A stretch of DNA of 64,000 nucleotides from a virus (IMGVR_UViG_3300037424_000794:6494-70493), one strand, 5' to 3'; positions 45,251-64,000 are shown, counted from the first letter of the stretch. Program-made: numbers and translations. The notes: generated from the sequence alone by a model not told the origin.

Positions 45251-45994
45251 ATGTCAGCAAGAGTTAGTATTATTACTCCTTTTTACAACATTAGTCATGA
45301 GCAGTTCTGGAAAAGCCATAATAGTATTATGGCACAGACAAGCAAAGATTTTGAATGGATTTTGGTCAATGATGGATCAGATAATTCAGACTGTGCTCAT
45401 CCGGATTACGATATTTTATTAGAGAGAAATTATGGTGCATCTGTAGCGAGAAATGTTGGTTTCCAGATTTCAAGCGGAGATATTATTACCTACTTGGATA
45501 TGGGTGATGAATTAGCACCCGATAGAGTAGAGACTCTTATTGACTTGTTTGACGAACATAGACTCAACATGCTATTCTCTAATTATGATATAATAGATCA
45601 TAACTATATGTTCAGAGTAGATCATTTCAGAATGTTTGATAAAGTTCATCCGTCCGATTACTTGAACAGCTTACAAAAGAACAACATCTCTATTCCTTTA
45701 GGAGTTGCTCATACAAGAAAGCCCTTCGTTGAAGCCGGTGGATTTCAGAGGGGAATTGTTTGTGGAGAAGATGGCATACTTTGGAGAAGAATGATTGATA
45801 AAATTCCTCATAATAGCATTCTATTCTCTGATGCAGTAGCAGGTACTTATTACGTTAGTGAGAGTGGACAAAGCAGGACGCAGAGAAGACCAGATATGGG
45901 CGGCTTCGCGTTTGATGGTAATCTAAAAGACAACGGAAAGTATTTAGACAAAAACTGGTATGAAACATATTCCAGCGAAGGATACTACGATTAA
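45251..45994 (+). CDS. Glycosyltransferase family 2
   Basis: VSIITPFYN, ILVNDGS, ARNVG, YLDMGD, GEDGILW. Confidence 0.9.
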   Translation: MSARVSIITPFYNISHEQFWKSHNSIMAQTSKDFEWILVNDGSDNSDCAHPDYDILLERNYGASVARNVGFQISSGDIITYLDMGDELAPDRVETLIDLFDEHRLNMLFSNYDIIDHNYMFRVDHFRMFDKVHPSDYLNSLQKNNISIPLGVAHTRKPFVEAGGFQRGIVCGEDGILWRRMIDKIPHNSILFSDAVAGTYYVSESGQSRTQRRPDMGGFAFDGNLKDNGKYLDKNWYETYSSEGYYD

Positions 45995-48415: not shown

Positions 48416-48982
48416 ATGATCGTAGGATTAGACATCGACGGAGTAATCAGACCTTGGCATACTAGTGTATATAGGCACTTTCAGATTTTCAAAGGTTTTG
48501 AAGGTACGGAGCGAGAATTTTGGGATTACTTCAGAGGCCTTGATAAGGATATGCAGGATTATTATGTATCCATTCCGCTTATGTATATGGACACTGCTCC
48601 GAGTAAAGATACTATTTATTATGTGAATAAAATTGCTGAAATAGCACAAATCTACTATATAACCTCCTGTCCAGAAGATATTAAAAGGCTGACCTCGAAA
48701 TTTTTCAATATATACGGTCTGCCCTTTAAGGAGAATATTATCTTCTCAAAAGACAAGGCTAATTATGTACGGCTAAATAAGATAGAGTACTTCCTAGATG
48801 ATCTGCCTAAAAATATAGACCAGCTAAAAGGCATTACTAATGCTTATTTGTTCAAAGCAAGTCACAATTGGGAAGTTAGGGATAACTATAATGTCATGAA
48901 TTCTATGAAAGAGTTCTATGAACTTTTATTGAGTAAAACTAGACAAGAGAAAATTATACAGGAGTTAGGATATGGAAAATAA
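48416..48982 (+). CDS. HAD-family 5'(3')-deoxyribonucleotidase-like protein
   Basis: GLDIDGV, ITS, K, FLDD, HN. Confidence 0.8.
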   Translation: MIVGLDIDGVIRPWHTSVYRHFQIFKGFEGTEREFWDYFRGLDKDMQDYYVSIPLMYMDTAPSKDTIYYVNKIAEIAQIYYITSCPEDIKRLTSKFFNIYGLPFKENIIFSKDKANYVRLNKIEYFLDDLPKNIDQLKGITNAYLFKASHNWEVRDNYNVMNSMKEFYELLLSKTRQEKIIQELGYGK

Positions 48983-49430
48983 GTGGTTTGGAATGAATGA
49001 TAGCTCTAATGAAGACCCAATAAAAGTTTATGCTAAAAAGGTAGAGATTAACAGAGCAAAACTATCAAATCAATTTGAAGATGTTACGCACATGGTTTTC
49101 GGAATTATTACTGAGTTAGGGGAATTGTTAGACATCTTCAAAAAGTATATGGCTTATGGGAAGCCAGTAGATTGGGTAAATGTTAAGGAGGAAATGGGGG
49201 ACATTATGTGGTATTTTATAGGTCTATGCAACGTCTTAGAGCTAGATTTCTGGGATATTTTAGATACAAATATGAGAAAGCTAGATACTAGATATAAGAA
49301 TGGATTTACCAAAGAAGAGGCTCACAATAGGGACTTGAAATCAGAAAGAGTAGTTTTGGAAGGAAAATCTAAACTAGAGATACTCACGGAAGTTAATCCT
49401 AGTGGCTGGATGGAGGAACATAATAAATAA
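48972..49430 (+). CDS. MazG-like NTP pyrophosphohydrolase
   Basis: ELGELLD, EEMGDIMWY, NMRKL..RY. Confidence 0.9.
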   Translation: MENKWFGMNDSSNEDPIKVYAKKVEINRAKLSNQFEDVTHMVFGIITELGELLDIFKKYMAYGKPVDWVNVKEEMGDIMWYFIGLCNVLELDFWDILDTNMRKLDTRYKNGFTKEEAHNRDLKSERVVLEGKSKLEILTEVNPSGWMEEHNK

Positions 49431-51156: not shown

Positions 51157-51537
51157 TTACTTTACTTCAATGTCAGGAATAATCACAGACGGTTTGAAGA
51201 TTACCCGATAGTGGTACGGATCGGCATGTGCAGAGTCAATTTGCTCCGCGAAATACGTGACATTATCTGACAGACCAAGGAAGTGCTTTTTGAACTGATT
51301 TTCTCCTGTCTTACATGTCACAGATAATTCTACCCCACTTGTATCGTAGTTTCCAAGGGAACACAATCCCTCAATTTGCAGAATGTAATCACCCGTGATC
51401 CCGTTGTAGAAAACAATTCTACGGGTGATTTCAAAATTATCCGCTGCGGTGGATAGGTTTTGTGATGCTACATCTGCATCAGAGCACCCGGTCAGGAAAA
51501 TCATCAGCATTGCGAATACTAACAGAAATTTCTTCAT
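51157..51537 (-). CDS. Lipoprotein
   Basis: Signal peptide with lipobox LTGC. Confidence 0.75.
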   Translation of the reverse strand: MKKFLLVFAMLMIFLTGCSDADVASQNLSTAADNFEITRRIVFYNGITGDYILQIEGLCSLGNYDTSGVELSVTCKTGENQFKKHFLGLSDNVTYFAEQIDSAHADPYHYRVIFKPSVIIPDIEVK

Positions 51538-53251: not shown

Positions 53252-53929
53252 TTATCCAACCTCTACTTCCGGAAATTCTTTGAATCCATATATTCCAGTA
53301 CTATGAGAGTTTCCGGTTGATATAAAATCAGACCACTTAGACTCCGGTTTTTTCCCTTGTAAAAGGGCAGCAAACCTTTTTAAGGTTACTGGTAGTCTTT
53401 GCTTGTCTGATGACATGAACCTTAATGCTTGAATTTCTCCAGACAAAAGATTCTTCAAATATTGTACGATGTCATCACCAGAGTTATACAACCAGCCTAT
53501 TCTTAATAGGGTCATGTAAGCACTTAACAATGGCCCATTTTCTGCCCATCTCCAGCTAAATTCTAAAACAACCGTTTTCTTATCTTTTGTTTTAAATCCT
53601 TTTGTTTTTGGGAAACCAAGTACATTCTCGAATTGATTCACTAGAAAAACAACATCATCCAGTTTTGCCTGCAAGTCCGTAGAGCCAGCTATCAGAGCGA
53701 CTCTAAATTTTCTGGCAGAGATATTAAATCCTGCTAATTTCCAAGCAGAGTATTTATATTCGTTGCCAGTTTGATTTGTCTTTAGATACCAGAAATCATC
53801 CTGTATGAAATCTTTGCAAGCATATGGATAGTTCATGGCGGTGTTATTTTTCCCCAAAAGAGCGTATGTAAGAGAGGCATCATATACAAATCCAGATGTG
53901 GGTTTTGTTCCAAAATTAATATTAAGCAT
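53252..53929 (-). CDS. Unknown protein of the ligase cluster (paralog 1)
   Basis: SAYMTLLRIG motif. Confidence 0.5.
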   Translation of the reverse strand: MLNINFGTKPTSGFVYDASLTYALLGKNNTAMNYPYACKDFIQDDFWYLKTNQTGNEYKYSAWKLAGFNISARKFRVALIAGSTDLQAKLDDVVFLVNQFENVLGFPKTKGFKTKDKKTVVLEFSWRWAENGPLLSAYMTLLRIGWLYNSGDDIVQYLKNLLSGEIQALRFMSSDKQRLPVTLKRFAALLQGKKPESKWSDFISTGNSHSTGIYGFKEFPEVEVG

Positions 53930-53931
53930 GG

Positions 53932-54240
53932 TTATTTCCTATGTGTTTTGAAATAAATTTCCCAGATCATCTTTCTTACTTCCTCAGTCATGTTATAATC
54001 AGGATATTCTTTGGGATTTTCATTGTAGAATTCCTGTACTTTATTTAGTAGGCTCGCCAGAGCAACTTTCCTACCTTTGCTCTTTTCAAACCGATCCTTA
54101 TAGAACAGATGAGCCTGTCCCGTAATATTTGTATTATCGATTCCTATAGCATCATCTACTCTTATAAGTTCTGCGTAGGTAGACGTACCATTTCTGCTGA
54201 ATTTTACACCGTATGTTTTTCCGTTCAGTTCAAAAAACAT
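53932..54240 (-). CDS. Hypothetical phage protein
   Basis: D.F.KSKGRKVAL motif. Confidence 0.5.
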   Translation of the reverse strand: MFFELNGKTYGVKFSRNGTSTYAELIRVDDAIGIDNTNITGQAHLFYKDRFEKSKGRKVALASLLNKVQEFYNENPKEYPDYNMTEEVRKMIWEIYFKTHRK

Positions 54241-54241
54241 G

Positions 54242-54559
54242 CTATACTCCTTTGCTCAAAGTTTCTTTTACTAATTTTCTGACATTTCTCAGTGTATCTT
54301 CACTTAGAAATTCTTCATCAGCCTCATCCACAAGCTCTTCTACACTAATCTTGATCTGTAATTTAAGCTCTTTTGATAGATTACAGGCTGTATTAAGGAG
54401 CTTCTCTAATTCCTCAAGAAATTCCTCTCCAGATAATCCATCAAGAGATAGAGAACTTTCCAGGGTGTATTCATCTGCTCCTACGACTAAGTCCAGAAAA
54501 AGATAATCTTCGTGCGAATTTTCTGGAGTTCCCACATATATACTAAGATAGTTTTTCAT
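54242..54559 (-). CDS. Acidic hypothetical protein
   Basis: ORF. Confidence 0.45.
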   Translation of the reverse strand: MKNYLSIYVGTPENSHEDYLFLDLVVGADEYTLESSLSLDGLSGEEFLEELEKLLNTACNLSKELKLQIKISVEELVDEADEEFLSEDTLRNVRKLVKETLSKGV

Positions 54560-54579
54560 TTTTAAGTTTAAGACTCCTT

Positions 54580-54987
54580 TCAGGAATTCTTAGCCTTTTC
54601 ATACAAGGCTTTATTCATATTGCTGTGTTTGTCATTCTTGTTGACCACATATACCGTAATTACTACAGCGTCTGCTGAAACTACCAGTACAATATCTACT
54701 GGAAGTTCCTCAAACGAGAATCTAAAACAAGCTTTTTTTACAATATTATTTGAAAGATAATACTCAAATATGTTATCTACACGTATATTGCCTTTGTGTA
54801 TTGATTTCAGTAGATATTTAAATAGACTTCTCCCATAATCTGCACAATACCCAACGATCTTTTCTACGGAGTGCGAAGAAAATACCATGCTGCTGGATTT
54901 GTAGAGATTATTTATAAATTCTTCCAGGATTTCGGTACTACCTGTAGGAAAGTAAATGTTCCTGTGGAATCTAAGAGATTTCTTCAT
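54580..54987 (-). CDS. Hypothetical protein, weak DUF4258/RelE-like pattern
   Basis: FSSHS...VITVY. Confidence 0.35.
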   Translation of the reverse strand: MKKSLRFHRNIYFPTGSTEILEEFINNLYKSSSMVFSSHSVEKIVGYCADYGRSLFKYLLKSIHKGNIRVDNIFEYYLSNNIVKKACFRFSFEELPVDIVLVVSADAVVITVYVVNKNDKHSNMNKALYEKAKNS

Positions 54988-55987
54988 ATGTCCTCCTAAT
55001 TATATCCATATACTTTAAGTATATGGATGAGTCTCGACCAGGGTCTATTTTTCCACATCTTTTAGATACTATTTTCATAGAAGGTAATTTTTTGATCTTT
55101 TTCACGAATCCTTTAATACTGTTCGGAGAACTCATCATGCTATTAACAGGGCCATTTCGTGAAGTAACATCCAATTCAGAATTATATACGCAATATCCTG
55201 CAAGTAGAAATAAGCTAAGCCAGTCAGAACCGTCACCATTTATAGAATTTCTTATGTAAGAAGATTCTGAGTCTGTAAGGTATTTTTCTGAGTTTCCATT
55301 TCCGTACCCCGAGATGTTAAAATATCCACATAGATTCCCTGCTGCTCTTTTACTGGAAATATTTACAAGCTCATTTGCTAGAGAAACTCTGGTACTAATT
55401 TTACCAGAAACTATTTTCTCTACAATCACAGGCTCTCTTAGGATGGCAAGGATGGCTGAAATTGATACACTCAGCGCTGGCCCGTAAGGATTTTTCTTAC
55501 AATTTAGATAGATGGTTACATATCCATCGGAATTTTTATCAACTTTATTTCCGTTTTTATCTCTGAAATAATGCAACCCTCCCCCGAACATTTTATTAAT
55601 ATCTTTTTCAGTGGCTATCCCATAACTAATTTCTAGACTAATGTCGAACACTTTCTTGAATAATCTCTCCAAAGTCTTGCCTACTACATCTTCCATAGAC
55701 TTTTCTGAATATTCTGTAAGAATTCGTGCAACCGTACTATACTGTTGTCCAGTGGATTGTATTCCCATAGTACAGTCAGAATCGTCTGAGAAAATACTCT
55801 TTAGCTCTCTGACTCTGTAATGTACAGATTCTCTACAGGTATGATTTGCTTGGTATCTTGGAACCTTCGTATATTTAGAAAAAGACTCTGTAGATGATAC
55901 AATATCCACAAGGGTCTTGGGGAATATACCTAGAGGCATCTTTTTTTGCTCCGGCCCTCTCATCACTATAATATTATAGCTATGCAT
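54971..55987 (-). CDS. Unknown protein of the ligase cluster (paralog 2)
   Basis: ISAILAILRE...NGP. Confidence 0.5.
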   Translation of the reverse strand: MHSYNIIVMRGPEQKKMPLGIFPKTLVDIVSSTESFSKYTKVPRYQANHTCRESVHYRVRELKSIFSDDSDCTMGIQSTGQQYSTVARILTEYSEKSMEDVVGKTLERLFKKVFDISLEISYGIATEKDINKMFGGGLHYFRDKNGNKVDKNSDGYVTIYLNCKKNPYGPALSVSISAILAILREPVIVEKIVSGKISTRVSLANELVNISSKRAAGNLCGYFNISGYGNGNSEKYLTDSESSYIRNSINGDGSDWLSLFLLAGYCVYNSELDVTSRNGPVNSMMSSPNSIKGFVKKIKKLPSMKIVSKRCGKIDPGRDSSIYLKYMDIIRRTYEEIS

Positions 55988-55991
55988 CGTA

Positions 55992-56828
55992 CTATTTCTC
56001 CTTCCTATTTCTTATCAAATCTACAACAGAGTCAAACGCCTCCAAAAAATGTGCTGGAGTACTATTTCTGTTTTCTTCTAGACCTTTTCTATCTGGAAAT
56101 TTTGCTAAATAAATGTCTTTTATGTAAGAAATAAATTTATTTATTGGAATTCCACAAAAGGCGGCTGTGGTTGGCCCGCTTGCCTCGCTCACAGTGAAAA
56201 ATCTTCTATTTAGTAGGGTGTAGCAGAACATAGATAATGCTACTGGATGATTAGAGCCATCACCTAATTCTGGATGCTCTAGAAATTCATTCTGAAGAAA
56301 ACTAATCAGAGTATCGATATGGTATGATGTTTCCGTAAAATTTTCTAGTATTTTATCTAATAAATCACCGTTTCTCATTATATATAGCAGTAAAGAGATT
56401 ACCCACAAATCAATAAATATTGCTGAGTAATTTGCTTTGTATTGTAGAACAGCTACTTCATCTATTAATTCTATGCGAATGCTGCTAAGATCACGATTAA
56501 GGAATTTACCAAGTGAGTCTACGGCCAGTTTTCCACTATTCTCTGCTTTTATGAACACCATTGGTCTGACAAATTTCGTAGAAAATGGTATAAACTTTCT
56601 AACAAAGCTTTTTATGCTTCCTATCAGCTCTTCTCTACAGAAAATATTTGATGTGTTGTTGTATAAGACATATCGCGTATCTCCTGACTGCAAAGCTTTA
56701 TTGAATTGTTCATCAGAATTAGTAAAGACACTGGTGATTTCTTTGTCTTTAAGAATCTTGACAAATTCGTCAGAGAATGTTATTGGTTCAGAATTCATGT
56801 TTGTAAAAACTACAAAATATCTGTACAT
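55992..56828 (-). CDS. Unknown protein of the ligase cluster (paralog 3)
   Basis: ISLLLYIMRNG...SGP. Confidence 0.5.
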   Translation of the reverse strand: MYRYFVVFTNMNSEPITFSDEFVKILKDKEITSVFTNSDEQFNKALQSGDTRYVLYNNTSNIFCREELIGSIKSFVRKFIPFSTKFVRPMVFIKAENSGKLAVDSLGKFLNRDLSSIRIELIDEVAVLQYKANYSAIFIDLWVISLLLYIMRNGDLLDKILENFTETSYHIDTLISFLQNEFLEHPELGDGSNHPVALSMFCYTLLNRRFFTVSEASGPTTAAFCGIPINKFISYIKDIYLAKFPDRKGLEENRNSTPAHFLEAFDSVVDLIRNRKEK

Positions 56829-57533
56829 TTATGCTCCATTGATAGTAAAAATCTCTGCTCGATACGTAGTAGTATATACATCTTTTACAGATTTTTTGGT
56901 AATACCCAGAATAGATTCATCGTCTCCATTCACCCAAGCACACAGGAGCTTTCCCACAGAACTTTTAAGTTCTCCTTCTGGAAAAAACTCAGGGTGAAAT
57001 TGGAAACATAGAAACTTATCTCCCCATATAATAGCTTCTATAACTCTCGTACTGGGTTCGGTGGCCAGCACCTTAACCGGAAGATGTTCTCCAATATACT
57101 GTATTCCTTGGTGATGCATGGAATTGACCACGGGAAGTAGCTGTGATAGTGCGGAGGATATTTTCCAGTGGATGTCGTGTATGGGTTTGTGTGTAACTCC
57201 ATACGATTCTCCAATGTCGAAAATTAGACTACCACCCATTCCGACATTAATAAGTTGAAGTCCTCTGCAAATTCCTAGTACTTTCTTCGTTTTCAGTTTG
57301 TTATTCACTATCGCTGAGAGTACAGAGAATTCCAGCTCATCTCTTTCAGTGGATGTCCAATCACTTTCTCTGTTGCTTCCGTACCTAAAAGGCTGAACAT
57401 CAGCACCACCAGAGAAAATAATTAAATCTGCATCAACTTCTGAGAAATCTTTTGGGAGAAGTTTTACTTCATGTGGGCGAAATAAATCTTTAGCAGAACC
57501 TATGTAGTCCTGTGTAACCTGATAAATTTCCAT
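56829..57533 (-). CDS. Class I glutamine amidotransferase / peptidase C26 (PuuD-like)
   Basis: SGGADV, GICRGLQ, NSMHHQG, QFHPE. Confidence 0.92.
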   Translation of the reverse strand: MEIYQVTQDYIGSAKDLFRPHEVKLLPKDFSEVDADLIIFSGGADVQPFRYGSNRESDWTSTERDELEFSVLSAIVNNKLKTKKVLGICRGLQLINVGMGGSLIFDIGESYGVTHKPIHDIHWKISSALSQLLPVVNSMHHQGIQYIGEHLPVKVLATEPSTRVIEAIIWGDKFLCFQFHPEFFPEGELKSSVGKLLCAWVNGDDESILGITKKSVKDVYTTTYRAEIFTINGA

Positions 57534-57542
57534 AGAGTCTCC

Positions 57543-58454
57543 TTAGAGCCTATTTTCAATATGAGCCAGTAATTGCTTTGCCAGCTTTTTATCAGCAGAT
57601 AGAATAGCTTCAATCGCAGGTTCCATGATTTCCTTGTCTAACTCGGCAGCAAGTTTTGTGCCCAGTAATTCTTTGATACCAATCTCTGCCCACTTCAGGA
57701 ATTCTTTGGCAACCTTCCAATTTCCTGCCCATGTACAAGACGGAGTTCTATACTCAATTCCTATGGCATAATCTTTTCCAAAGGGGTTATCGATGCCGTA
57801 GTTCTGGACACGGAATTTCCCCGGTCTTCCATACAAAAGAGTTCTGTCACGTTCCAGATCAGCTACTGGAGAATTTGCAATGGCCGCCAGTCCCGCAGTT
57901 AATGCCATACACCTAATGGCAGAGTGGGGGTCTTTTGCAATATTCTCGTTACCAGACATGTGCAAATGTCCTCCAGCATACCTATATGGGTGCTTGCTGG
58001 CATCCATCACCATGCATTGTGCGGAAAGATTAAACACATCCTCGTCCGGATCACATCCGAACATAGTACTCATAAAAAAGTCTTCCTCCATCTCTTTCCA
58101 GCGTTCTACATCGAATCCTATTGTAGGAACGAACTGGAGAGATGGCAGACAATACTCTGGAAATGACGAGAGAATCTGTTGATTTACTGCTTTAGCAGCC
58201 TCCTGGATTCTTTCAAAAAGCTCTTTTGGATCAAAGGATGGACGAATTGCAAATTCAAATGCAGCGCCGTCTTCGTGAGCTTTGAAATATTCTCCAGTAA
58301 GAAATACTGGATGCCGATCATCATCAGATGCATGAACTTGCAAAATCTTCCTGAAAAAATAGGGAGGAAGCGTATATAACTTATCGTTTTTTAGGTACCC
58401 AGCAAAGCACTCTGGGTCTGTCCCGAATAAAATTCTAGACTTTTTCTTAGCCAT
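57543..58454 (-). CDS. phiEco32-like COOH-NH2 ligase (type 2)
   Basis: GTDPE, EDGAAFE, FGCDPD, GGHLH, YGRPGKFR, GIEYRTPS. Confidence 0.92.
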   Translation of the reverse strand: MAKKKSRILFGTDPECFAGYLKNDKLYTLPPYFFRKILQVHASDDDRHPVFLTGEYFKAHEDGAAFEFAIRPSFDPKELFERIQEAAKAVNQQILSSFPEYCLPSLQFVPTIGFDVERWKEMEEDFFMSTMFGCDPDEDVFNLSAQCMVMDASKHPYRYAGGHLHMSGNENIAKDPHSAIRCMALTAGLAAIANSPVADLERDRTLLYGRPGKFRVQNYGIDNPFGKDYAIGIEYRTPSCTWAGNWKVAKEFLKWAEIGIKELLGTKLAAELDKEIMEPAIEAILSADKKLAKQLLAHIENRL

Positions 58455-58467
58455 GGGGTTTTCCTTT

Positions 58468-58896
58468 CTAAAATAGAATTTTCTTCTTGAAGACGGATGA
58501 TAGAGGTTTTGTTTCTATGCCGCCGTTTTTTATTGATAGGTATTTACTAATATTTTTTATTTTATCGTTTGGTTCTTTTTCTCCAGACAACATCGACCTA
58601 CATTCTTCGCACAGAATATTTATCTGATGACTAGTATGACAATCCTTTACAGGATTATATTTGTCACAGATAGAGCACTGCACATTTATTTCCTCAGCAT
58701 TAGTTACAGATTGTGAACACATTTCGCAGTAGAACGTTGGTGTTATTTTACTGCGTGCTTGTAATTCCAGAACTCCCACCACGATACCGTTAGGAGAAAT
58801 ACCCAGGGATGGTGTTTTTAGTGTAAACCCGGTGCTCATGTCTAAATGTAGAATTCCTTTACACTCTTTTCCATGTAAAAATGTAGCATTAGCCAT
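58468..58896 (-). CDS. Cys-rich Zn-binding protein
   Basis: CEMC, CSIC, CEEC. Confidence 0.55.
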   Translation of the reverse strand: MANATFLHGKECKGILHLDMSTGFTLKTPSLGISPNGIVVGVLELQARSKITPTFYCEMCSQSVTNAEEINVQCSICDKYNPVKDCHTSHQINILCEECRSMLSGEKEPNDKIKNISKYLSIKNGGIETKPLSSVFKKKILF

Positions 58897-58906
58897 GTTT
58901 TCTCCT

Positions 58907-59989
58907 TTAGTTTATATAGGGCTTAGTAGCAACTTTTTTTGGGTATGAGTTTTCATCTATGCAGATATTAAAAAACTCATCTGGCTCTCCGAAAGTAACT
59001 TCAGGATCGAAACCTTCGTCAGTAGGAATAAGATGAACCAGCCCATTATATATACACATTTTCTTAGCAACTCCTGACATATCCTGTACTACATTTATGA
59101 TTTCGTAAGTTATGGGTAAAAGTGCTATAACCCTTCCTATTCCAACCTCAAATATATCAGAAAGATTTACCTCGCCCATTACTAGCGCAGATTGCTCGAT
59201 TATATGTTCCAGCTGCTCGCTTGGGGGTTTTCCATATAGTTCATCTACATTATCATCCGACTCATCTACAGGCAATTCGTTGTAAGACATTCCCCCAGTT
59301 CCCACAGTTAAATTATTAGGACATGAGTCTACAAATTTATCAAATTCTGTGCTGGAATTCGATGTAGCTACGTCATTTAATCCAGTGGTAGGGAAGTTTA
59401 GAGTATTAACCTGTAAATCTGGGAAAGAAACTTCTTTGTTTCTCTTTGAGAGTAATAAAGAATACACAAGCTTTTTTCCAAGAGCTGTAGGAGAAGAAAT
59501 ACAACTCATGATACTTGTAGAAGAATCACAAAATATAGAGAGAATTTCCGGCCTTTGCTGTCTGTGCTGCGTCGAGTAGTAATAAACGTTAGGAAATCCT
59601 CCATCTTCAAATTTAGTACCAGCAAAAATAAATAATTCATCCTTGATGGGACTTTCTGGATAATAATTTTTGAAATCACCAGTAGTTATTGCTCGGACAC
59701 CATCCTTTAGATATACTAGTACTGTGTCACCTGCTCCTTCTTTACGACTATCTGCAAAAATTTTTTTCAAGTCTTCTTCATTCTTTTCTACATGAGGAAG
59801 AATTTCCGGTGTGTGGGGGAATATAGTCCATACAAGATTTCCATCTTGCATACATATTTCACTTACATAATTTGCATCCCCGCTGAAGAATTTTATTGTG
59901 CCAGAAGTTTTAAATGAATCTGACCAGGATGACAAGCACCGCAAAAGTTTGTGGTCTGCCCATCCGGTTTTTTGCTCATTGATTACCAT
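58907..59989 (-). CDS. Hypothetical protein
   Basis: ORF with AAGGAG RBS. Confidence 0.5.
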   Translation of the reverse strand: MVINEQKTGWADHKLLRCLSSWSDSFKTSGTIKFFSGDANYVSEICMQDGNLVWTIFPHTPEILPHVEKNEEDLKKIFADSRKEGAGDTVLVYLKDGVRAITTGDFKNYYPESPIKDELFIFAGTKFEDGGFPNVYYYSTQHRQQRPEILSIFCDSSTSIMSCISSPTALGKKLVYSLLLSKRNKEVSFPDLQVNTLNFPTTGLNDVATSNSSTEFDKFVDSCPNNLTVGTGGMSYNELPVDESDDNVDELYGKPPSEQLEHIIEQSALVMGEVNLSDIFEVGIGRVIALLPITYEIINVVQDMSGVAKKMCIYNGLVHLIPTDEGFDPEVTFGEPDEFFNICIDENSYPKKVATKPYIN

Positions 59990-60764
59990 ATATTAGTGTC
60001 CTTCCTTTTGAAGTAATATTTATCAGAGCCTTTCTTAGTAAAATAGGCTCTACTTGATTTTTTAGAGTATCCTCATCGACGTGTAGAATACTTCTTAGCA
60101 TAGAAATGCTGGCATTTCCTCCGACATCTGACAGAACCTCCAAATATCTTCTACATAGGGTATCTAGTCCATCTTTTATTCTGAAGACTTCTTCTAGCAG
60201 CTTCTCGAAATCAACGGTATTGGGATTCACAGTAGGATTTTCTCTGAAATAAGTAGAAATCCTATCCACCAGGGACTTGATAATTCTTGGATTTCTATTA
60301 CCAGATTCTATTATATGCATGAAAGCATCCTCTGCTGCACTAAATTCCGCAGATTCCATAGCTATCAGGAGCAACTCATCTGTAGAATAATCATCAAAGA
60401 TGAACTCAAAGCATCTATTGACCAGAGCTTCGGGAAGATTTCCATCTTTATTAGTAGCCAGAACAAATACATGTGATTTGTTATCCAGATGCGGATATAG
60501 AATCTCAAAATCTCTCATCTTGTGTATTTCGTCGATAAAAATCACACGTTTTACAAACCTGAATTCAGTCCAATCTCCCAGATAAAACTCGAAGTTTTTT
60601 TCCGGCACAGAAAGATACTTACAAATGGACATTGCCATAGTAGTTTTTCCGTAGCCGCTAGGCCCGCGCAGCAGAACATTTGCCCCCCTTTCTGTATTCT
60701 TATATAAATCTGGCAGAATGAACCTAAGCTGGTTCATTATATGTGTTTGTCCAATAAATTTCAT
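59976..60764 (-). CDS. RuvB-like AAA+ ATPase
   Basis: FIGQ, GPSGYGKTT, FIDEIH, ATN, AL.NR, PR sensor, winged-helix EP.LL...ITSKGR. Confidence 0.85.
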   Translation of the reverse strand: MKFIGQTHIMNQLRFILPDLYKNTERGANVLLRGPSGYGKTTMAMSICKYLSVPEKNFEFYLGDWTEFRFVKRVIFIDEIHKMRDFEILYPHLDNKSHVFVLATNKDGNLPEALVNRCFEFIFDDYSTDELLLIAMESAEFSAAEDAFMHIIESGNRNPRIIKSLVDRISTYFRENPTVNPNTVDFEKLLEEVFRIKDGLDTLCRRYLEVLSDVGGNASISMLRSILHVDEDTLKNQVEPILLRKALINITSKGRTLIYGNQ

Positions 60765-61993
60765 TTCGCCTTTTTAGCTTCTAGTTCCTCAACAAAAGCT
60801 ATCTGCACAGTTTTTGGATTGAACATCCAAGGATATTCCATACCCTTTTTGTATTGATAGTGCATCATATGGTACTGTCCTAGTACTTTTCTGAGTCTTT
60901 TCCTGATTTCCTTATTGGTTTTGCTGTCAATTCTGGGAATCACTACTTTGATGAAATGTTGTAGCATGGGTTTGGTAACCTCCAGCAAAGAAGCTGAGTA
61001 CACTCTTGCAAAAATGAATTGCAAGTCCTCAACCGATAAGGAATTTCCTCTTAAAAAATCGTAAATCCTAGCGAATAATTTGGCAGTATCTTTGTCAATC
61101 TCCCCAGTATCCGCCGTAGTATTCTTTTTCGTAGGGTTTTGTACCCCAGTATTTCCTCTCTGCCAGTTATTATAGTTGTAGGAAGTTGCAACCGTATTCT
61201 CTTTAATTTCTCCTACTTCTACCAGGTCAGTTTTGTCTGCTTTGAATATTGTCTCGCCTTCCAACAGAGCAGGTATAGAAAAATCCAGAGGTTTCTTACC
61301 GTCAAGTTGCTGAAGATTGGATAGTAACAGCATGCTTCTATCTAGAATTTCCTTACTAGTATTAATAGCCCATCCTACAGTTTTTTCTTCCTTCTGGCTT
61401 CTGTCGATAAGATATGATATATACAAATCAGCGGTTTTTCCTCTTGCAATATAGTATGTATTATTAATCACGAATACAAAAGCAAACTTTCCTGTAAAAA
61501 GCTCCATAGTATCTTGAAGGGCCTTTACGAAGGAGTCCTCTCCCTTGTAGTGCTTCATGAATTCCTCGAAGAAAATAAGAGAGTCTGACCTGTTTACTTT
61601 AATTTCTTTCTTCTCTTTAGTCTTGGAGTCTATTTCTATTGCACTTTCCTCCATAACAAAACTCTTCTCATCTTTTGGAGACAATTTTCCGTTATGAACA
61701 AAGGAAATTCCTTTTTGTTTGAAGGGATGAGAATTTGATTTACTTACGGGAACTTTTGGACTTGCCTGCCTGATATGTCCAAGCAGAGGAGTTTTACCGA
61801 AATCAAATTCTCTAAGAATTTCTCCAGAATCTGATGTTACGAACATGGGAAGAGAGCATTTCCAAATATCCCCGGAGGAATTCGAGATTCCCCACCCATC
61901 ATTATGTATGGGACTGCCTCCATGACCCATTATTAGAAACAACTTCTTATTTAAATTCTGGTCTCCCAGATTGCACAAACTTATTTGGCACAT
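60761..61993 (-). CDS. Class II (Ntn) glutamine amidotransferase
   Basis: N-terminal Cys (MCQI), DGWG, GHIRQAS, SHPF, HNG, SDS. Confidence 0.92.
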   Translation of the reverse strand: MCQISLCNLGDQNLNKKLFLIMGHGGSPIHNDGWGISNSSGDIWKCSLPMFVTSDSGEILREFDFGKTPLLGHIRQASPKVPVSKSNSHPFKQKGISFVHNGKLSPKDEKSFVMEESAIEIDSKTKEKKEIKVNRSDSLIFFEEFMKHYKGEDSFVKALQDTMELFTGKFAFVFVINNTYYIARGKTADLYISYLIDRSQKEEKTVGWAINTSKEILDRSMLLLSNLQQLDGKKPLDFSIPALLEGETIFKADKTDLVEVGEIKENTVATSYNYNNWQRGNTGVQNPTKKNTTADTGEIDKDTAKLFARIYDFLRGNSLSVEDLQFIFARVYSASLLEVTKPMLQHFIKVVIPRIDSKTNKEIRKRLRKVLGQYHMMHYQYKKGMEYPWMFNPKTVQIAFVEELEAKKAK

Positions 61994-62006
61994 AAAGTGT
62001 CTCCTC

Positions 62007-63269
62007 TCAAGAAAATATACTCACAACTTTTTTGGAAATATTGTGAATATCTGTATGTTGCGGATTTAAATAGTCAGAAACAGAAAGCAAGTTCCCCAAT
62101 GAAGCAATCTTTTCTGGAAGATAAAATTGCTGTATGTGGGTTTTTACCGGAGTTTCAGGAATTGATTTAAAAGAAGATTTCTCTATGGTTTCCAATATCA
62201 GAGAAATTTCGTTATCAGTAGGAATATTCTCTATTCCCTTGTCGTAGCAAATGGCCATGATTCTGGCAACTATATCTCTAGAATCAGCAACAGAGATTTC
62301 TTCATTGCTATTTATAATATCAAACTGATGAATTTCATTTTTACTAAGTAGAGTGGACATCTCCACAATACCCCTAAGAAATTTACCAATTGATACAATG
62401 AGAGGAGCATCCAGGCTTTGATTTGTATGTCGAAATTCAATGGTTCCGTGAGAATACATTGCGAAGAAGTTCGTTCCGGAATATCTGCTAGGTAGATATT
62501 TATTGTTTGCTCCAGTATAATCTACCCCAAAGCTGGCCCAGAATTGTTCTATGTATTCTGCATCTAGTGCAGCTCTGGGATTAATAATTCTTACCAGTTG
62601 CTTTTTGGTTTTATTTTTTGTGGCATCTTCCAGCTCGTTTTCTTCGTTCATCTCAATTTCATTTTCCTCCTCACGAATTCTGTTTAAATCTCTGATTGTT
62701 AGTCCCCTGCTTATCTCTACAGCAGCAGAATTCAGAAGAGGTCTGGCATATGCTGATAGATTACTTTCTCCACGAAATACGTCCCCCATTCCTCCCAGCC
62801 TGTATAAAACAGGCTCCAGCATCAAGGAAACTCTGAGAATATTTTTCAATAGTCTCAGATTATTCACAAATCCTACGTGAAAATGAATAGATGCTCTTTT
62901 TGAAGTAAAATCTCCATTATTTCTCAGAACCTGCATCAAAGGATATACGACTCTATCAAATTTTTTTATTTCTATGGGACTGGAATACAGTTCAAATCCC
63001 ATAGTTACAGTATTTCCACCGGCTCCATATAATCTTTTTGCACATGGAGTATGGGAAGAAACCAGCAGATATTGTCCGTTACTAGCTCGTATGTTTTCTG
63101 CCAGGAACTCCGTACTAGCGTCTCTGGTTATATTGATACATTTTGCTAATTCTCCAGCAATAGGATTAAAATATTCTGCTAGAACATTCTTTATTTTCTG
63201 TTGGTACATAGAAGTACTTTCGTACTCTATGCCTATTGTGTCTAAATACTGTCCATAGAAATTTCCCAT
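62007..63269 (-). CDS. Amidoligase (glutamine synthetase-like fold)
   Basis: GIEYE, RDAS, GFELYS, SIHFHVG, RY...N, TIEFRH. Confidence 0.9.
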   Translation of the reverse strand: MGNFYGQYLDTIGIEYESTSMYQQKIKNVLAEYFNPIAGELAKCINITRDASTEFLAENIRASNGQYLLVSSHTPCAKRLYGAGGNTVTMGFELYSSPIEIKKFDRVVYPLMQVLRNNGDFTSKRASIHFHVGFVNNLRLLKNILRVSLMLEPVLYRLGGMGDVFRGESNLSAYARPLLNSAAVEISRGLTIRDLNRIREEENEIEMNEENELEDATKNKTKKQLVRIINPRAALDAEYIEQFWASFGVDYTGANNKYLPSRYSGTNFFAMYSHGTIEFRHTNQSLDAPLIVSIGKFLRGIVEMSTLLSKNEIHQFDIINSNEEISVADSRDIVARIMAICYDKGIENIPTDNEISLILETIEKSSFKSIPETPVKTHIQQFYLPEKIASLGNLLSVSDYLNPQHTDIHNISKKVVSIFS

Positions 63270-63274
63270 GAATT

Positions 63275-64000
63275 CTATCCTTTCAGCATTTCAGTATAGA
63301 AGATGGGAGTTCCATTCGCGGGAAAATGCTTGGGAAAATTGTGACGAATAAGCCAGTCAAAATAGGCTGCATACTTTCCCGCTGAGTACGGAACACCAAC
63401 ATCTGGATCAGTATTCAATTCACAAATTGCCATAGAATCATTATTAGCGTTATACATCACGTCTACGGCGGCATAATCTAATCCCAGAATTTCTGTAGCT
63501 CTCAGGGCTTCTCTGCAAACCATGGGATTAAATTCACTCCATGCTATTGCTCTCCAATGTCCAGCATTCACTGCCATATCAGACCAGATATTTCCCTTCT
63601 TGAATTCTTTTTCATTAATAAACGTGATTTTTCCGTGAGCAGTGTGCACACGAAATTCATGTGTCTTATTGAAAATCTCTGAAAAATACCAGTCAATGAT
63701 GCCCGTTCCTTTTTCTGAACGCAAAGCTCGAAGTTCTCTGATATTATTTAGTACATGGAAATTTCTTCCTCTTTCGTGATGTGACGGGCGAGCAATTAAA
63801 GGGAATTCTACATCTACGCCACCCAGAGATTCTGTGATAAGGTCGAAGAAATATGTTTTCGGAATCATAGCCTTTTTACCTTGCAAAATTTTTCGTGCTG
63901 TAGTTTTGTTAGAAGTTCTGGCCACAGCAGAGGGGATATTTAAATCGAAATAATTATCCTCCCTAAAAATATGATTCCCCCAGTTGATGATCCTGTTATC
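63275..64000 (-). CDS. ATP-grasp (RimK-like) ligase, 5'-truncated by the window edge
   Basis: Frame open to 64000 (DNRIINWG...); EFRVH, LGLDYAAVDV, ICELNTDP. Confidence 0.85.
   Translation of the reverse strand, partial: DNRIINWGNHIFREDNYFDLNIPSAVARTSNKTTARKILQGKKAMIPKTYFFDLITESLGGVDVEFPLIARPSHHERGRNFHVLNNIRELRALRSEKGTGIIDWYFSEIFNKTHEFRVHTAHGKITFINEKEFKKGNIWSDMAVNAGHWRAIAWSEFNPMVCREALRATEILGLDYAAVDVMYNANNDSMAICELNTDPDVGVPYSAGKYAAYFDWLIRHNFPKHFPANGTPIFYTEMLKG

Follow-up and report, generated by a model that had tools for sequence, protein, structure and literature searches.

A phiEco32-type amidoligase cassette of an uncultured-phage lineage, with a RuvB-like ATPase, a variable gene and a zinc protein as conserved neighbours

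Positions 53252 to 64000 of the viral DNA stretch IMGVR_UViG_3300037424_000794:6494-70493 (the window, that is, all 64,000 nucleotides analysed) carry 14 close-packed open reading frames (ORFs) on the minus strand, which form a single gene string; the coordinates given below for its genes all refer to that strand. This locus is best explained as the version, belonging to a lineage of uncultured phages, of the amidoligase cassette of phiEco32-, LUZ24- and RIO-1-type phages, and would serve to make and trim glutamate-type amides inside the infected cell rather than within the virion. We give this reading a probability of about 0.62. The enzyme cassette itself is known, reportedly from sequence since 2009, and the literature is said to have consisted of predictions since then. 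What is new is the lineage-wide arrangement, in which three further genes, encoding a RuvB-like ATPase, a variable protein and a zinc protein, are conserved neighbours of the enzymes. The cassette is among the most widespread phage enzyme sets lacking an identified product. Indeed, no experimentally determined product of a phage amidoligase cassette was found in the searchable literature, in agreement with what the original prediction, made from this DNA alone, had stated.

That prediction listed an ATP-grasp ligase, an amidoligase, a class II glutamine amidotransferase (GATase), a RuvB-like ATPase, a zinc protein, a COOH-NH2 ligase type 2 and a class I GATase/C26 enzyme, with intact catalytic motifs. 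Its observation is confirmed, and its interpretation is partly supported. All seven proteins are present; the enzymes were called with Pfam and PHROGs profiles, and their catalytic residues are invariant across the 10-11 homologous cassettes over which invariance was judged. The RimK-like ATP-grasp ligase (63275-64000; phrog_2599, 2.1e-15) is cut at its 5' end, so that some 45-55 N-terminal residues are missing. It has a weak RimK match to structure 7qyr and homologues of 247-302 residues; its Mg-binding motif (D185, E199, N201) is invariant, and phmmer retrieves with it the ATP-grasp genes of phages PhiCHU and QDWS535. The Amidoligase_2 protein (62007-63269, 420 residues), a glutamine-synthetase-like (GS-like) carboxylate-amine ligase, scores 37.6 bits against PF12224 (cut-off 22), and E15, E17, E54, E93, H129, H131, R262, E278 and R280 are invariant in 10 homologues. 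The third ligase is the GCS2-like COOH-NH2 ligase type 2 (57543-58454, 303 residues), which matches phrog_3815 over its full length (4.7e-22) and in which E15, H48, E67, H163, H165, R204, E234 and R236 are invariant. Its metagenomic homologues number 196, of which the 120 listed show 42-86% identity and lie on contigs of up to 93 kb, and many of the matches listed carry a precomputed PF14395 annotation. With tblastn it also matches the COOH-NH2 ligases of PhiCHU, PaP3 and the Alcaligenes phage.

Two cysteine amidohydrolase-like enzymes accompany the GS-type ligases. The class II enzyme (60761-61993), of the N-terminal nucleophile (Ntn) fold and the YafJ/GATase_4 type, matches GATase_4 (24.4 bits, cut-off 23) and GATase_6. 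Since the protein begins with MCQ, the Ntn cysteine is present, and C2, R75, H100-N101-G102 and D137 are invariant; the nearest solved structure is the YafJ-type protein 1te5. A synthase domain in the C-terminal third was considered and rejected, this region being short, helical and poorly conserved. The second enzyme (56829-57533), of the Peptidase_C26/class I GATase fold, scores 93.2 bits against PF07722 (cut-off 20.5), and its Cys-His-Glu triad (C89, H180, E182) is invariant in 10 homologues. Its best solved matches are 3fij (Lin1909), 6vtv (PuuD, the gamma-glutamyl-GABA hydrolase) and the 7d4r/7d53 group, 7d4r being presumably SpuA. To judge from their sequences, the C26 and Ntn enzymes resemble stand-alone gamma-glutamyl amidohydrolases (PuuD/SpuA and the YafJ type, respectively) more than the glutaminase halves of amidotransferases. 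Thus, of the two amidotransferases of the original prediction, the folds and families are there, but the amidotransferase role is not borne out, the nearest relatives being the gamma-glutamyl amide hydrolases PuuD, SpuA and Lin1909, and 1te5.

These assignments can be arranged into a possible pathway. The RimK-like ATP-grasp, the GCS2-like COOH-NH2 ligase and the GS-like Amidoligase_2 would form successive amide bonds, at the expense of ATP, on one amine-bearing acceptor, and glutamate-type carboxylates would be involved in these bonds. Each GS-type ligase would work with its own cysteine amidohydrolase, the YafJ-type Ntn enzyme after Amidoligase_2 and the C26 enzyme after the COOH-NH2 ligase; indeed, the pairing of ligase and hydrolase is kept across 11 cassettes despite rearrangement in two of them, L013 and L036. 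Either hydrolase might deliver ammonia from glutamine, or might strip a gamma-glutamyl group used as an activating or protecting handle, and the same task would fall to a gamma-glutamyl cyclotransferase (GGCT), whose gene probably lay immediately ahead of the truncated ATP-grasp gene. The combination of hydrolase-like C26 and Ntn enzymes with GS-like and GCS2-like ligases and a GGCT favours, by analogy, a pathway that first forms gamma-glutamyl amide bonds and afterwards cleaves them, rather than simple amidation. In EgtA/EgtC and BtrJ/BtrG, as in PuuA/PuuD, a gamma-glutamyl bond is likewise made and then removed. The gamma-glutamyl-polyamine pathway of E. coli (PuuA/PuuD) and Pseudomonas (PauA/SpuA) shares with the phage locus the association of a GS-superfamily ligase with a Peptidase_C26 hydrolase. 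It differs in that the similarity of the phage C26 enzyme to PuuD/SpuA amounts to only 35-39 bits, with about 30 N-terminal residues missing, and in that the phage cassette has none of the oxidase or dehydrogenase steps. As acceptor, a small amine or a host peptidoglycan-precursor peptide would rank first, a protein second and DNA third.

The place of the GGCT gene depends on how the contig ends. The source contig is 70.5 kb long, linear according to its IMG/VR record and 77% complete by CheckV, and both of its ends interrupt genes: the 5' end of the ATP-grasp gene (at window position 64000) and a tail-protein ORF. The latter (L006:2-2533) runs off the contig start and encodes 844 residues, while its homologues have 1221 (L007) and at least 1231 residues (G002). 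In the relatives, the ATP-grasp protein has a segment of 45-55 N-terminal residues ahead of an INWGN/IRYGN motif, which the window copy lacks. The closest complete relative is G002 (92,947 bp; TerL 77% and tail protein 73% identical), in which about 20 kb separate the tail genes from the cassette. By comparison the source contig is some 22 kb short, and the missing part fits this interval. The ends of the contig would join two ORFs neatly, but circularity was rejected, given the linear record, the CheckV estimate, the missing ATP-grasp N-terminus and the interval in G002. The end-to-end join is therefore accidental, and a cassette lying directly behind the tail genes was rejected with it. G002 carries a GGACT-family GGCT gene (1.9e-28) immediately upstream of the ATP-grasp gene. 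None was found in the 70.5-kb source contig, which ends exactly at the point where G002 carries one, and the gene of the window phage was probably lost to the assembly break and not in evolution. GGCT is also absent from the complete relatives G003, G004 and G006.

The enzymes belong to an arrangement shared by a whole lineage. An alignment-based scan of IMG/VR with the COOH-NH2 ligase gave 16 loci, and one with the RuvB-like ATPase gave more. One layout is common to 11 contigs (the source contig, L008-L015, L034 and L036), nine of which are 70-94 kb long and two of which are fragments of 48.5 and 50.5 kb; the complete genomes measure 86-94 kb, and the COOH-NH2 ligases are down to 30% identical. 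Amidoligase and class II GATase genes are adjacent, in this order, in all 11. The ATP-grasp gene stands either ahead of the amidoligase or behind the class II GATase; there follow the RuvB-like gene and then a gene of 286-360 codons. The genes for the zinc protein, the COOH-NH2 ligase and the C26 enzyme lie near this core block, the last two adjacent or nearly so in most contigs. The order in the window is ATP-grasp, amidoligase, class II GATase, RuvB-like, variable gene, zinc protein, COOH-NH2 ligase, C26, while in L013 it is zinc protein, COOH-NH2 ligase, amidoligase, class II GATase, ATP-grasp, RuvB-like, variable gene; in L036 it is the COOH-NH2 ligase gene that has shifted, to an upstream position. 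Both rearranged versions keep the sub-blocks. In the complete relatives, some 15 kb of small ORFs precede the cassette, which itself converges on a ribonucleotide reductase (RNR)/DnaB module; its location is therefore non-structural. The relatives also show that parts of the cassette undergo duplication: in L010 (5780-6706) and L011 (3986-4864) the cassette ATP-grasp has beside it a longer paralogue of 292-308 residues, and there is a second C26 copy in L010 and a second Ntn GATase copy in L013.

The likeness to cultured phages extends to the whole enzyme repertoire. In phiEco32, the genes from gp88 to gp77 comprise two ORFs, the COOH-NH2 ligase, gp85, the amidoligase (gp84), the class II GATase (gp83), two small ORFs, the ATP-grasp, gp79, gp78 and the GGCT, after which the primase/helicase comes next. 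The LUZ24-like phage PhiCHU and the Alcaligenes phage QDWS535 have the same gene order, and QDWS535 carries in addition a C26-like 'peptidase' upstream of the cassette (phmmer, 6.6e-11). The window shares with the cassettes of phiEco32, LUZ24-PaP3-PhiCHU (gp22-gp30 in PhiCHU), RIO-1 and PSA-HP1 the COOH-NH2 ligase, the pair of Amidoligase_2 and class II GATase, and the RimK-like ATP-grasp; it shares the non-structural location as well, and a GGCT is present in its closest complete relative, G002. The assignment to the phiEco32 type is thus upheld. The cluster had also been called expanded, and on this point the prediction fails. phiEco32 and PhiCHU already have the three ligase families, a class II GATase and a GGCT, the cassettes of phiEco32, LUZ24 and RIO-1 already include three ligases and an Ntn enzyme, and a C26 enzyme occurs in some, the Alcaligenes phage among them. 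As the five enzyme families of the window are all found in phiEco32 (gp77-gp86), PhiCHU (gp24-gp30) and QDWS535, the repertoire is standard and not an expansion. The differences lie elsewhere: the window proteins are only about 25% identical to those of the cultured members, the RuvB-like ATPase, the hypervariable gene and the two-zinc protein are embedded in the cassette of this lineage, and the phiEco32-type cassette has been described in podoviruses, whereas the present lineage consists of phages of 86-94 kb. With an uncultured host, the window copy is also a poorer experimental entry point than phiEco32 or LUZ24. In two papers, where the readings are predictions, the phage cassette is labelled a 'peptidoglycan modification cassette' and proposed to block superinfection (PMC5498523; PMC10580990, citing Iyer 2009); another label in the literature is that of a 'gamma-glutamyl amide / unusual peptide bond' cassette.

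Several observations weigh against our preferred reading, a phiEco32-type cassette that makes and trims glutamate-type amides. The gene order in the window is not that of phiEco32, and the cassette proteins without a family gave no PHROG match, at E values up to 5, to phiEco32 gp85, gp87 or gp88 (phrog_4877, 13102 and 13063). The window proteins considered as their homologues, u360, u338, u278 and u225, also gave hhalign probabilities below 1% and were rejected as such. Two of the three ligase assignments are not secured by Pfam: the ATP-grasp protein has no Pfam match, and the COOH-NH2 ligase scores 21 bits against PF14395, below the cut-off of 25. Synteny inside one phage lineage can stem from descent and not from shared function. 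Finally, for cassettes of this type every chemical step is inferred from family membership.

The gene that most invites other interpretations is that of the RuvB-like AAA+ ATPase (59976-60764), a protein of 262 residues with a C-terminal winged helix (RuvB_C 2.4e-13, AAA 7e-11, RuvB_N 9e-10). It is 24-28% identical to bacterial RuvB over its full length, its 262 residues aligning to about 293. It has the RuvB_N, AAA and RuvB_C domains and all the ATPase motifs of RuvB, sensor 1, the arginine finger and sensor 2 included, with K40/T41 (Walker A), D78/E79 (Walker B), N105, R117, R160 and the winged-helix pair G254-R255 invariant, but it is some 30 residues shorter and is conserved beside amide ligases. 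No RuvA_N match was found in the source contig or in four complete relatives, in a search whose control was positive in 10 of 14 genomes; the absence of RuvA from these five records implies that the phage protein is not part of a classical RuvAB system.

All 11 contigs with a cassette of this lineage have the RuvB-like gene within it, directly after the ATP-grasp/class II GATase block even in the rearranged L013 and L036. This constancy argues against the strongest of the rival explanations, that of a composite locus in which the known ligase/hydrolase cassette adjoins an independent DNA recombination or replication module (RuvB-like, variable and zinc genes) and a third, unrelated block (u278-u338-u135a-u102), with no shared product. 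The zinc protein also moves with the COOH-NH2 ligase, and not with the RuvB-like gene, in L013. We regard a composite locus as a real but distinctly less probable explanation. In its favour, the same RuvB-like family (hmmsearch, ~1e-78) occurs in three contigs, L032 (9992-10762), L035 (3877-4647) and L033, with no ligase within 10 kb, so that the ATPase is separable from the ligases. Its neighbours there are proteins with double zinc ribbons or DksA-type fingers, M23/GH25 lysis genes, a Dam methylase and the same convergent RNR/DnaB module, which suggests that a RuvA-less module of RuvB plus zinc protein exists on its own in phages. Moreover, hundreds of phiEco32-type cassettes lack an ATPase of this kind, the u278-u338-u135a-u102 string recurs on short contigs of its own and is missing from L008, and u102 is found in ligase-free contigs too. 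That the genes form one operon with a shared product, as the original prediction has it, is a hypothesis; in the gene-neighbourhood comparison for which it called, the layout is kept in 11 contigs, but the RuvB-like gene is also found in three contigs devoid of ligases, and the string from u278 to u102 is separable. The position of the RuvB-like gene inside the cassette may reflect lineage synteny and not shared function, and a functional link to the ligases is putative. If the link is merely positional, the window holds one more copy of a known cassette.

That the ATPase is functionally integrated with the ligases, through either of two mechanisms taken jointly, seems doubtful. One would be DNA-directed chemistry. 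Here the ligases would make or lengthen a decoration of amino-acid type, carried by DNA or by a protein bound to it, and the RuvB-like motor would be loaded onto the DNA of the phage or of the host. The presence, inside all 11 cassettes, of a RuvB-type ATPase with intact ATPase and winged-helix G-R motifs is consistent with it, as are the absence of RuvA from the five records and the several DNA methyltransferases of the window phage. Nevertheless, the RuvB-like family is found without ligases, the other cassette types have no DNA-binding component, and neither a thymidylate-synthase-like hydroxymethylase nor a TGT/DpdA-like gene was found in the contig (77% complete), and such chemistry is very improbable. 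Hypermodification of thymidine or deazaguanine bases was rejected on this last ground, the contig having no Thymidylat_synt or TGT match, with 23% of the genome missing. The other proteins scanned in the replication region were nucleases, methylases, GT2, NT5C and MazG. Equally tied to DNA is the idea that three recruits of the cassette, a DNA motor of RuvB type working independently of RuvA, a hypervariable adaptor and a two-zinc protein, direct its glutamyl or amide chemistry to DNA or a DNA-bound protein; this we consider unlikely. If a DNA target were true, it is through these neighbours that the target of the cassette, without a known product since 2009, would first come into view. The RuvB-like ATPase, the hypervariable gene and the zinc protein, all kept inside the cassette by this deep-branching lineage, might confer specificity or handle the target.

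The other mechanism would be a tagging of proteins akin to pupylation. A protein of the host or the phage would receive from the ligases a tag, either of glutamate type or a peptide; activation or removal of this tag would fall to the amidohydrolases, and the handling of the tagged substrate to the AAA+ protein. PafA and Dop are members of the superfamily to which COOH-NH2 ligases belong. The PafA/Dop and Mpa system, like the cassette, brings together carboxylate-amine ligases, a deamidase-type step and an AAA+ ATPase, which in the phage is embedded in the cassette, and peptide tags were proposed for such systems by Iyer et al. 2009, as cited in PMC4431377. However, there is no sequence similarity to PafA/Dop and no Pup-like small protein was identified in the cassette; the phage ATPase is of the RuvB DNA-translocase type, with a conserved DNA-contact motif, and not an Mpa-type protein unfoldase. 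We therefore hold tagging to be quite unlikely.

Part of the case for tagging comes from u338 (54971-55987, 338 residues, no family assignment), whose family comprises about 48 sequence clusters (48 representatives) of 316-366 residues with only six invariant residues (C51, R52, E53, E185, R214 and G279). A profile of 34 sequences gave no Pfam or PDB match. The AlphaFold (AF2) model is confident (pLDDT 92.9, pTM 0.93), and Foldseek found no match with it. A search with VIA, which does not depend on Foldseek, put PafA (Z 6.0) and Dop (Z 5.7) at the top, with 189 aligned residues each, and also listed gamma-glutamylcysteine synthetase (Z 4.0) and glutamine synthetase (Z 3.8; 3.1-3.8 overall). 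On a second examination, seven PafA/Dop entries scored between Z 5.0 and 6.1 (PafA 6.0-6.1, Dop 5.0-5.7), with root-mean-square deviations of 4.4-4.8 Å over 180-191 residues. In VIA, fold matches stand out above Z 8, and a lower Z can mean merely a common arrangement. In addition, u338 has neither the ligase metal-binding motif nor the N-terminal Glu-x-Glu strand of the cassette ligases, it lies outside the conserved core, and it is absent from most relatives. Against the ligase families of the cassette itself, hhalign gave u338 a probability below 1%. Judging from its model, u338 could represent an atypical fourth ligase-superfamily protein; this is a lead and not a finding, because the Z scores are under the safe level and the hhalign comparison with the cassette ligases is negative. 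Should it hold, a family of some 48 clusters with a confident model would be added to the ligase superfamily.

The two other conserved neighbours have their own peculiarities. The gene for the fast-evolving protein u360 (58907-59989, 360 residues) has a fixed position after the RuvB-like gene, and only two homologues of it were found, P0002 (63% identity) and one in L008. In the other contigs, the genes at this position encode 286-351 residues with no detectable similarity to u360, and homology among these variable genes was rejected, the signs of it being weak pairwise hints (E ~1e-3) only. No Pfam or PHROG match was found for u360, and its ESM Atlas model is poor. The small two-zinc protein Zn142 (58468-58896, 142 residues) has conserved Cys/His ligands and belongs to a family found in 10 cassettes, with H8, C12, C57, C60, C74 and C77 invariant and C96 and C99 nearly so. 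Its AF2 model (pLDDT 75) has no significant PDB fold match, and the ESM Atlas gave nothing usable. An identity as an endonuclease VII or His-Me finger protein, hinted at by a weak match to phrog_2633 (E 0.023), was rejected, as the family does not conserve the His/Asn positions and no matching fold was obtained. In this lineage the RuvB-like, fast-evolving and zinc proteins are thus conserved neighbours within the cassette, and the u278-u338 pair is an additional insertion.

Downstream of the C26 gene, u278 (55992-56828) has no family assignment and a single homologue among 5.8 billion proteins, on a 77-kb NCBI contig that carries homologues of u360 and of the COOH-NH2 ligase as well. Both u278 and u338 are absent from the closest complete relative (L008). 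The small conserved protein u135a (54580-54987; phrog_24108/phrog_1905) has homologues in L008, L011, L042 and L043. The u338-u135a-u102 string is found on two JGI contigs, on one of which (L042) a u278-like gene precedes the u338-like gene; its occurrence on other contigs, though missing from L008, makes it a variably present block. The small acidic protein u105 (54242-54559) has a homologue in L008 only. By comparison, u102 (53932-54240), another small protein, is widespread in related phages, including ligase-free ones, with homologues in L008, L010, L032-L034, L036 and L037. The last gene encodes u225 (53252-53929), a recurrent cassette-associated protein with no PDB match and with homologues in L008, L016, L017 and L020; these lie directly upstream of the COOH-NH2 ligase gene in L016 and L017 and beside the ATP-grasp gene in L020.

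At the nucleotide level, a megablast of the cassette region against phage records gave no match, and single-protein pattern scans of IMG/VR and GTDB with u360, the amidoligase and u338 gave no close relatives. The structural genes have a relative in L007 (IMGVR_UViG_3300033146_001483), a 39-kb fragment with a syntenic tail module of up to 63% identity, in which the long tail protein is followed by a further gene of 956 codons and small ORFs, with no ligase. Within the structural module of the window phage, an endonuclease VII gene (phrog_2914, 4e-34; L006:3863-4213, minus strand) sits between a tape-measure-like gene of 1435 codons and the tail-protein genes. Opposite the cassette, a plus-strand module encodes a GT2 glycosyltransferase (window 45251-45994), an NT5C-type deoxynucleotidase (48416-48982) and a MazG pyrophosphohydrolase (48972-49430), and adjoins a primase-like gene and a gene for a large DNA methyltransferase. 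Finally, window positions 51157-51537 encode a protein of 126 residues with a lipoprotein-like signal peptide (ending LTGCS) and a Pfam Phage_VG64 match (6e-54); PHROGs labels it a recombination directionality factor, and its homologues lie near the cassette in L011, L014 and L036.

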